Of a stretch of DNA of 348 nucleotides, positions 1-348 are shown one piece after another. How positions within the stretch are numbered: position 1 is the stretch's first letter; each line of letters opens with the position of its first letter. The notes beneath the pieces were generated by a model. The model made no database searches and was not told the DNA's origin. It worked only from the letters and a program-made list of their open reading frames with translations. The translations under genes and the position numbers were made by a program. Source of the DNA: Escherichia coli (GTDB lineage Bacteria > Pseudomonadota > Gammaproteobacteria > Enterobacterales > Enterobacteriaceae); the NCBI RefSeq assembly GCF_003334255.1, contig NZ_QOWU01000259.1, one strand, 5' to 3'.

Positions 1-117
1 CAGGCACTGGCAGTGGGTGTGGGTTACCGCTTCAACGAGCAGACCGCAGCGAAAGCAGGCGTGGCATTCAGTGATGGCGATGCCTCCTGGAACGTTGGTG
101 TGAACTTCGAGTTTTAA
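1..117 (+). CDS. 3' end of an outer-membrane beta-barrel protein gene (5'-partial; start codon lies upstream of the window)
   Basis: Frame +1 is open from base 1 to TAA at 115-117. Translation: [38 protein letters not shown]. Alternating hydrophobic/polar residues, short turns (NEQT, DGDAS) and a terminal Phe with aromatic/hydrophobic residues at -1, -3, -5 match the C-terminal beta-signal of outer-membrane beta-barrels. Internal GVGYRF resembles the C-terminal motif of OmpX/Ail/PagC-family proteins (from memory). Codons are common enterobacterial ones (ctg, gcg, aac, ttc, ggt, cgc). Family assignment is inference; no gene name can be given. Confidence 0.78.
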
Positions 118-205: not shown

Positions 206-348
206 ATGAAGGTGATTCTGGCTACCAGGAACCGCTATCTGGAGTATGGTCTGCAGGCGTTACTGAAGGGGCACAGTGTGATACTGGCGAGGGAGTTTTT
301 CCTGCCGGAGAACCGCCGTTATATCCCGGACTTTGACGAATCCTGGCT
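206..348 (+). CDS. 5' end of a protein-coding gene (3'-partial); possibly a LuxR/FixJ-family transcriptional regulator with an atypical receiver-like N-terminus (GadE/DctR/RcsA-like), tentative
   Basis: ATG at 206 with SD 7 nt upstream; frame is open to the window end (47 codons plus a partial codon). Translation: MKVILATRNRYLEYGLQALLKGHSVILAREFFLPENRRYIPDFDESW. The N-terminal pattern (hydrophobic run, T-R-N, then Y-L-x-x-G-L-x-x-L-L-K-G) is similar from memory to GadE (MIFLMTKDSFLLQGFWQLK), DctR/YhiF (MFLIITRDT…ILSKG) and RcsA. In canonical NarL-type receivers this position is the conserved acidic DD pair; here it is T-R. Functional call rests on about 25 residues of recalled similarity and is not verified. 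Confidence 0.68.
   Translation, partial: MKVILATRNRYLEYGLQALLKGHSVILAREFFLPENRRYIPDFDESW

Follow-up and report, generated by a model that had tools for sequence, protein, structure and literature searches.

A TosE-family LuxR-type regulator with a predicted pseudo-receiver domain is encoded behind the eib adhesin genes of Escherichia coli prophages

The stretch of DNA analysed here, 348 bases from Escherichia coli and in the following called the window, joins the end of an adhesin gene to the beginning of a small open reading frame (ORF), ORF-156, which is the subject of this report. The window is 100% identical to AF151674.1 (phage P-EibC, 2368-2715) and to AF151675.1 (phage P-EibD), two prophages of E. 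coli ECOR-9, and occurs in 39 of 5,426 complete E. coli genomes, which carry at most six copies each. By identity to these records, positions 1-117 (plus strand) hold the last 38 codons and the TAA stop codon of eibC/eibD and encode part of the YadA-type membrane anchor; both entries annotate the gene product as an immunoglobulin-binding YadA-like trimeric autotransporter. An intrinsic-terminator-like hairpin follows on the same strand (142-174, with the stem at 142-170 and a T-run at 170-174), which is entered as a stem_loop in both GenBank records and was also returned by a terminator scan. A Shine-Dalgarno-like AGGAAGG can be read on the plus strand at 192-198, 7 nucleotides (nt) upstream of the ATG at position 206. 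From there up to position 348, again on the plus strand, the window contains the first 47 codons of ORF-156C/D without any stop (MKVILATRNRYLEYGLQALLKGHSVILAREFFLPENRRYIPDFDESW), and translation, AlphaFold2 modelling and family alignment place strand 1, helix 1, strand 2 and the long loop before strand 3 of the protein in this part. According to the GenBank annotation the full ORF-156C/D comprises 156 residues (locus L001, 2573-3043); its start lies 88 nt behind the end of eibC/eibD.

ORF-156 is a real gene, because it is annotated, has homologues of conserved length (two protein searches yielded 44 and 32, at ~30-98% identity), exhibits pairwise ratios of non-synonymous to synonymous substitution rates (dN/dS) of 0.14-0.26 in its full-length form and is modelled by AlphaFold2 with confidence (pLDDT 91, pTM 0.87). 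It is under purifying selection. Standard profile libraries are nearly silent on it. Pfam gave no match even at E<=10, neither to PF00072 nor to PF00196, so that the hidden Markov model check on the full ORF proposed in an initial annotation of the window was formally negative and more sensitive methods were needed. When 25 family members were submitted to Pfam, single weak matches to Sigma70_r4 and GerE were all that appeared, the latter with an E-value of 0.1 in one of the 25. NCBIfam places ORF-156 in no family, PHROGs assigns it to families of unknown function only (phrog_6585, phrog_2014) next to a weak 'transcriptional regulator' match (E 0.087), and a phmmer search of the PDB with the single ORF-156 sequence yielded no significant match. 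Chance similarities were also encountered. Residues 82-108 (L001 2816-2896), which overlap the start of the C-terminal domain described below, gave the best of the single-sequence PDB matches, to a stretch of streptococcal IgG-binding protein G (GVWTYNSAARPLTMSEMV versus GVWTYDDATKTFTVTEMV), a curious likeness beside the gene for an immunoglobulin-binding adhesin; with an E-value of 0.59 it is not significant and was taken as chance. Three further candidates from the representative search (P0057, P0062 and P0065) are long repeat-rich proteins, two of them of the WD40 type, and were set aside as spurious multi-stretch matches.

The back half of ORF-156, approximately residues 100-156, is on the level of homology established as a LuxR/GerE-type helix-turn-helix (HTH) domain. 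When a profile of 29 family members was run against the PDB, GerE came out as the best match (E 0.008), followed by eight more LuxR-type HTH proteins, VqmA-like regulators and VraR among them. Alignment of residues 96-156 with the HTH domains of NarL, RcsB, EvgA and UvrY by hhalign gave a probability of 96.5% and an E-value of 1e-9 over 49 columns, while two cross-domain controls stayed at 0.1-0.2% probability. AlphaFold2 predicts four helices here (102-113, 118-125, 129-142 and 150-153). The most conserved block of the family, LTMSEMVVMFGY...LA.EMGI..KTVNTFLY.GM.KNG, fits the LuxR pattern, and the recognition helix opens with K130, T131 and V132, each invariant or nearly so. Some of the more distant family members carry the label 'LuxR family' or 'LuxR C-terminal-related' in UniProt/NCBI. 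The assignment to the LuxR family, which the initial annotation had made from the first 47 residues, has therefore been borne out by the full ORF, and ORF-156 probably binds DNA.

For the N-terminus, the initial annotation had aligned residues 3-22 with the beginning of NarL/FixJ receiver domains and had noted T-R in place of the acidic pair. These residues read exactly as quoted there, and T7-R8 follow the first hydrophobic strand. In the AlphaFold2 model, residues 1-95 form strand 2-6, helix 10-19, strand 25-27, a short helix, a long loop, strand 47-51, helix 53-62, strand 68-72 and helix 79-88, in total four beta-alpha units of a CheY-like (beta-alpha)4 domain; a fifth strand with its Lys is not present in the ORF-156 model. 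When the model was compared with the PDB by Foldseek, the first 36 matches were all full-length NarL/FixJ-type regulators, among them FixJ, RcsB, StyR, LiaR, DesR, VpsT, spr1814, EvgA and VraR (best E 6.8e-4, probabilities up to 0.99); whole-chain TM-scores to these regulators are low because the relative orientation of the two domains differs. The alignment of residues 1-95 with four E. coli NarL-family receivers by hhalign is weak (score 20.9, P 0.005, probability 6.8%), with 100 column shuffles scoring 11.1 +/- 2.0 (maximum 18.0) and a reversed control 11.5. The likeness to receivers exceeds chance, at the sequence level only weakly so, and fold model, structural matches and shuffle controls together uphold a receiver-like N-terminus.

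The register of this alignment brings VILATRNR over ILLIDDHP, equating T7-R8 with D13-D14 of NarL, and WLIISD over LILLD, equating D52 with the phospho-acceptor D59. Seven residues of the domain are invariant across the 29 family sequences (T7, E13, G15, F32, D52, L58 and G65). Within the ORF-156 family the Asp alone is retained of the five signature receiver residues, and no conserved Thr or Ser follows strand 4, the positions after strand 68-72 varying between D, G, N, S and P in the 29-sequence family alignment. The domain is probably not phosphorylatable, because the Mg2+ ligands, the Thr/Ser and the Lys are missing, and in view of the predicted fold and the family alignment it is best described as a truncated pseudo-receiver. 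The earlier idea of a non-phosphorylatable receiver hence stands as far as the replaced acidic pair and the lost Thr/Ser and Lys are concerned; it did not foresee that the phospho-acceptor Asp is kept and invariant. The equivalent of NarL D59, which had been singled out for inspection and expected around residues 55-60, does indeed lie beyond the window; it is residue 52, and it is an Asp.

Judged by homology, the closest CHARACTERISED relative of ORF-156 is TosE. From 1.8 billion representatives, phmmer run exhaustively retrieved a protein of 160 residues (P0051) with an E-value of 1.3e-19 and 32% identity over ORF-156 residues 1-151. Its gene is located directly 3' of a gene for a giant RTX-repeat protein and 5' of one encoding a GerE-domain protein of 169 residues. 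In E. coli Nissle 1917 the genes are arranged in the order PapB/FocB-family regulator, TolC-family protein, type I secretion ATPase, HlyD-family adaptor, beta-strand-repeat protein and two HTH proteins, in a cluster that adjoins pic. Because this order matches the published tosRCBDAEF operon, P0051 was identified as TosE and its neighbour as TosF, gene order being the basis of the identification. A tblastn comparison of ORF-156 with TosE gave an E-value of 3.7e-25, and the AFDB entry of the CFT073 TosE protein superimposes on the ORF-156 model with a TM-score of 0.93. TosE and TosF are members of the LuxR family reported to suppress motility (PMC5956150, PMC10392849, citing Engstrom 2014). On this evidence ORF-156 is a new member of the TosE family and not a new kind of system.

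The arrangement seen in the window is recurrent. In a complete phage genome the eib-orf156-orf60 cassette lies just 3' of the genes for tail fibre and tail-fibre assembly, a typical position for cargo, and ORF-156 is a prophage cargo gene of Eib prophages. Among 51 related loci in IMG/VR, 23 are of the full-length Eib type, and in 22 of these a YadA-anchor gene ends ~90 nt upstream, the single exception being situated at a contig end; most of the 23 also feature an ORF-60 homologue downstream. The initial annotation had placed the regulator directly behind a surface-protein gene, and this holds for the window, where 1-117 is the 3' end of eibC/eibD, as well as for the 22 loci arranged alike. 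Twelve of the 51 loci encode full-length versions of 180 residues directly after a tail-fibre-assembly gene, with no adhesin gene (e.g. L050 4001-4543). On the opposite strand in this class resides an ORF of 440 residues (L050 5025-6347, minus strand), whose N-terminal sequence (MNIQP...) makes it a candidate NleA/EspI-like type III effector. A further 15 loci are internally deleted remnants devoid of residues 78-118, and the last one (L076) holds residues 1-38 only, at a contig end.

Outside this set, YadA-like genes precede the family members P0019 on a prophage, P0023 on a plasmid, beside a trimeric autotransporter of 1,439 residues, and P0046, a homologue with 47% identity. RTX-repeat genes precede P0050, P0059 and the plasmid matches H45 and H46, of which H45 has a TosE/TosF-like tandem pair; TosF-like partners were found only in RTX-linked loci. 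The common chromosomal member P0031 (55% identity) follows hpaC, with no adhesin gene. Altogether, the association of the family with large secreted surface proteins is strong, though not universal. Some of these loci have further peculiarities. A Rep3/CcdAB plasmid (L023 1-4918) encodes a trimeric autotransporter of 1,439 residues together with a BamE/OmpA-like gene, then a short YadA-anchor protein and then the family member, a layout that amounts to a three-gene adhesin cluster. About 6 kb 3' of P0050, which is 38% identical to ORF-156, there is a gene pair with PAPS-reductase/DUF3440 and ParB-like features (L004 9548-11418); its domain make-up is presumably that of IbrA/IbrB, activators of eib expression. 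P0031 is preceded by ~1.1 kb of AT-rich non-coding DNA without any ORF of more than ~50 codons (L020 3850-5000), which may represent an extended regulatory region or else the trace of a gene that has been lost.

The start codon of ORF-60 (L001 3043-3225) and the stop codon of ORF-156 have one base in common (TGATG), and this overlap suggests translational coupling. The gene encodes a membrane protein of 60 residues whose middle segment is basic and whose C-terminus forms a hydrophobic helix. The 40 residues at its C-terminal end are kept 3' of ORF-156 homologues in other Eib-type prophages, even in the absence of a called gene (L017 5532-5651), and it is absent from plasmid and tos-type loci.

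The interval between the two genes of the window bears on the way in which ORF-156 is expressed. Positions 118-205 fold at -30.7 kcal/mol (z -2.7). Hairpin and U-tract are kept in divergent loci with coding regions of 50-70% identity (L017, L023, L038), with base changes on both arms that leave the pairing intact, and the most distant locus, L008, features a different hairpin in the same place. The purine-rich, Shine-Dalgarno-like block is likewise kept in most related loci, and the window matches no RNA family in Rfam. A promoter scan of the eib-orf156 interval revealed no sigma-70-like site. Since ORF-156 starts only ~30 nt after the hairpin and no promoter-like site was found there, the gene is probably transcribed by low-level read-through when the adhesin is made. 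A 10-bp hairpin with a T-run is also present between tosA and tosE, and the tos genes are described as one operon.

Taken together, ORF-156 is probably a TosE-family, phosphorylation-independent LuxR-type regulator that is made with the Eib adhesin and adjusts surface programmes of the host; this is the explanation we favour. Low-level read-through past the eib terminator would provide the protein together with the adhesin, the N-terminal domain (~1-95), having lost acidic pair, Thr/Ser and Lys, would most likely act as a phosphorylation-independent module for dimerisation or partner binding, and the HTH (~100-156) would contact DNA. Host surface programmes would then be adjusted, mainly through reduced flagellar motility during expression of the adhesin. 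The role in motility is proposed by analogy to TosE/TosF as well as to LuxR proteins with a degenerate receiver that pair with RcsB. In a more specific form of this explanation, ORF-156 itself would be an auxiliary partner of RcsB. Several observations weigh against this explanation. D52 sits at the phospho-acceptor position directly behind strand 47-51 and is invariant in 29 of 29 sequences, which leaves some room for phosphorylation or another function that depends on the Asp, and neither Pfam nor NCBIfam recognizes the protein. Full-length versions occur without an adhesin gene in the 12 tail-fibre-assembly loci and in P0031. The identity with TosE is only 32%, the reported motility phenotype of TosE was obtained together with TosF, and there is no TosF-like gene beside ORF-156, ORF-60 being next instead. 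Finally, the searchable literature on ORF-156 and ORF-60 and on regulators in Eib papers yielded no function for ORF-156.

Other explanations differ in what they make of the protein itself. The internally deleted derivative might point to a decaying, non-functional prophage remnant: it joins residues 21-77 to 119-156, lacks the first HTH helices, corresponds to phrog_2014 and is widespread in phages converting to Shiga toxin (Stx) production, with ~150 records (e.g. VT2-Sakai H0139; L063 3944-4225). The derivative is probably a fixed remnant. For ORF-156 itself decay is scarcely credible, as the full-length form combines low dN/dS with a conserved length, a confidently modelled fold and a complete HTH. 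It is also conceivable that the N-terminal domain has no descent from receivers and is a small Rossmann-like alpha/beta domain joined to a LuxR HTH, with a convergent or fortuitous likeness to NarL at residues 3-22. We regard this as unlikely: the whole two-domain model matches NarL/FixJ regulators in the first 36 Foldseek matches, strands 1 and 3 lie in the NarL register with a score above all 100 shuffles, and DctR, which is accepted as a LuxR protein with a degenerate receiver, fares no better against the same receivers (P 0.02). The retention of D52 throughout the family, TosE included, in the place of NarL D59 where strand 3 ends could on the other hand be read as the mark of a true phospho-accepting regulator served by an unlinked kinase or acetyl phosphate. 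This is very improbable, given that the Mg2+-binding acidic pair is replaced by T7-R8 with an invariant T7, that neither the conserved Thr/Ser after strand 4 nor the Lys of strand 5 is present and that none of the loci examined contains a linked kinase gene. Moreover, GadE and DctR keep the same Asp and yet are auxiliary partners of RcsB. GadE and DctR are not known to be phosphorylated themselves. The heterodimers of GadE with RcsB act independently of RcsB phosphorylation (PMC5651002).

A different question is which genes are controlled. ORF-156 may mainly regulate eib locally, activating the eib promoter or repressing it by feedback, and not motility, an option to which we concede a real though clearly smaller chance. 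There are precedents for LuxR-type regulators linked to an adhesin that control the gene next to them. AutA and AutR bind the upaB promoter (PMC4844996), MatA/EcpR together with RcsB activates the mat (ecp) fimbrial operon, which encodes MatA/EcpR (PMC5651002), and the linkage of eib and orf156 in 22 of 23 phage loci fits a cis-acting pair. This is countered by the persistence of family members without eib, after tail-fibre assembly genes or as chromosomal orphans, and by the homologue TosE, which is linked to motility while TosR controls tosA. Expression of eib in K-12 lysogens is reported to have needed the unlinked ibrAB genes. Going beyond the explanation we favour, ORF-156 and TosE might by analogy make up a clade of their own, with miniature pseudo-receiver-LuxR regulators that move together with adhesins as a two-gene module and, as hitherto unrecognised auxiliary partners of RcsB, repress flhDC. 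Such a clade would span prophages, plasmids and islands as well as two unrelated secretion types, trimeric autotransporters and RTX proteins, and the invariant D52 would serve partner binding instead of phosphorylation. We consider this extension rather unlikely; if it were true, a phage would bring along an adhesin plus the means to switch off swimming.

The GenBank deposition of ORF-156 dates from 2000 and names no function, and Pfam misses the family. Placing ORF-156 in the TosE family provides a testable role for a gene carried beside those of Eib and similar chain-forming adhesins in commensal and Shiga-toxin-producing E. coli, and a link between adhesin and motility or surface genes would, if true, help to explain how prophage adhesins are integrated into host regulation.

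Comparison with known systems puts the gene into perspective. With NarL/FixJ regulators (NarL, RcsB, EvgA, UvrY, FixJ, DosR) ORF-156 shares the order of domains, the same type of HTH, the register of strands 1 and 3 and the Asp equivalent to NarL D59. Unlike these, it lacks the acidic pair, the Thr/Ser, the Lys, the fifth strand and a partner kinase, escapes detection by PF00072 and PF00196 and is ~50 residues shorter than NarL. DosR sets a precedent for a four-stranded receiver. RcsA, GadE, DctR, MatA/EcpR, BglJ and RflM are LuxR-type auxiliary partners of RcsB, and the RflM-RcsB pair represses flhDC (PMC5651002). Like ORF-156, these proteins (GadE, DctR/YhiF, RcsA, MatA/EcpR, BglJ, RflM) are small, combine a receiver-like N-terminal domain devoid of the acidic pair with a LuxR HTH and have no cognate kinase. 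DctR (MFLIITRDT...VIIDT) and GadE (MIFLMTKDS...VIIDT) feature the same T-[RK]-D after strand 1 and Asp after strand 3, and EcpR is found among the AFDB fold matches of ORF-156. ORF-156 is 20-50 residues shorter than the RcsB partners and has no fifth beta-alpha unit. In hhalign it is collinear with the DctR profile over 131 columns without reaching significance (P 0.009, probability 4.6%), and GadE gave P 0.018; these values were obtained in local mode, as global mode produced a nonsensical end-to-start alignment with DctR. The parallel to GadE, DctR and RcsA drawn in the initial annotation is thus a reasonable analogy of architecture, while membership in one family with them would be no more than a hypothesis.

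PapX, FocX and MrpJ are small regulators encoded at the 3' end of adhesin loci that lower flagellar expression when the adhesin is made. We propose the same logic for ORF-156, as a comparison of function only; PapX, FocX and MrpJ bind DNA by a different fold and not by a LuxR-type HTH. TosE comes closest. It is homologous over the full length, of similar size (160 versus 156 residues), shares the invariant residues T7, E13, G15, F32, D52, L58, G65, L100, F109 and V132 and likewise has the gene of a large surface adhesin, then a terminator-like hairpin, immediately upstream of its own gene. The two differ in that the adhesin gene upstream of tosE, tosA, encodes a type I-secreted RTX protein on a pathogenicity island, whereas that of ORF-156 specifies a trimeric autotransporter on a prophage; in that TosE is followed by TosF, a second LuxR protein, and ORF-156 by a membrane protein of 60 residues; and in that suppression of motility has been reported for TosE/TosF only. 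An orphan degenerate-receiver LuxR regulator beside an adhesin gene is a concept already established by TosE/TosF, EcpR, AutA/AutR and GadE/DctR and will for this reason hardly surprise the specialist. The main interest lies in the recurrent module of adhesin and regulator on mobile elements and in the invariant Asp of its pseudo-receiver.
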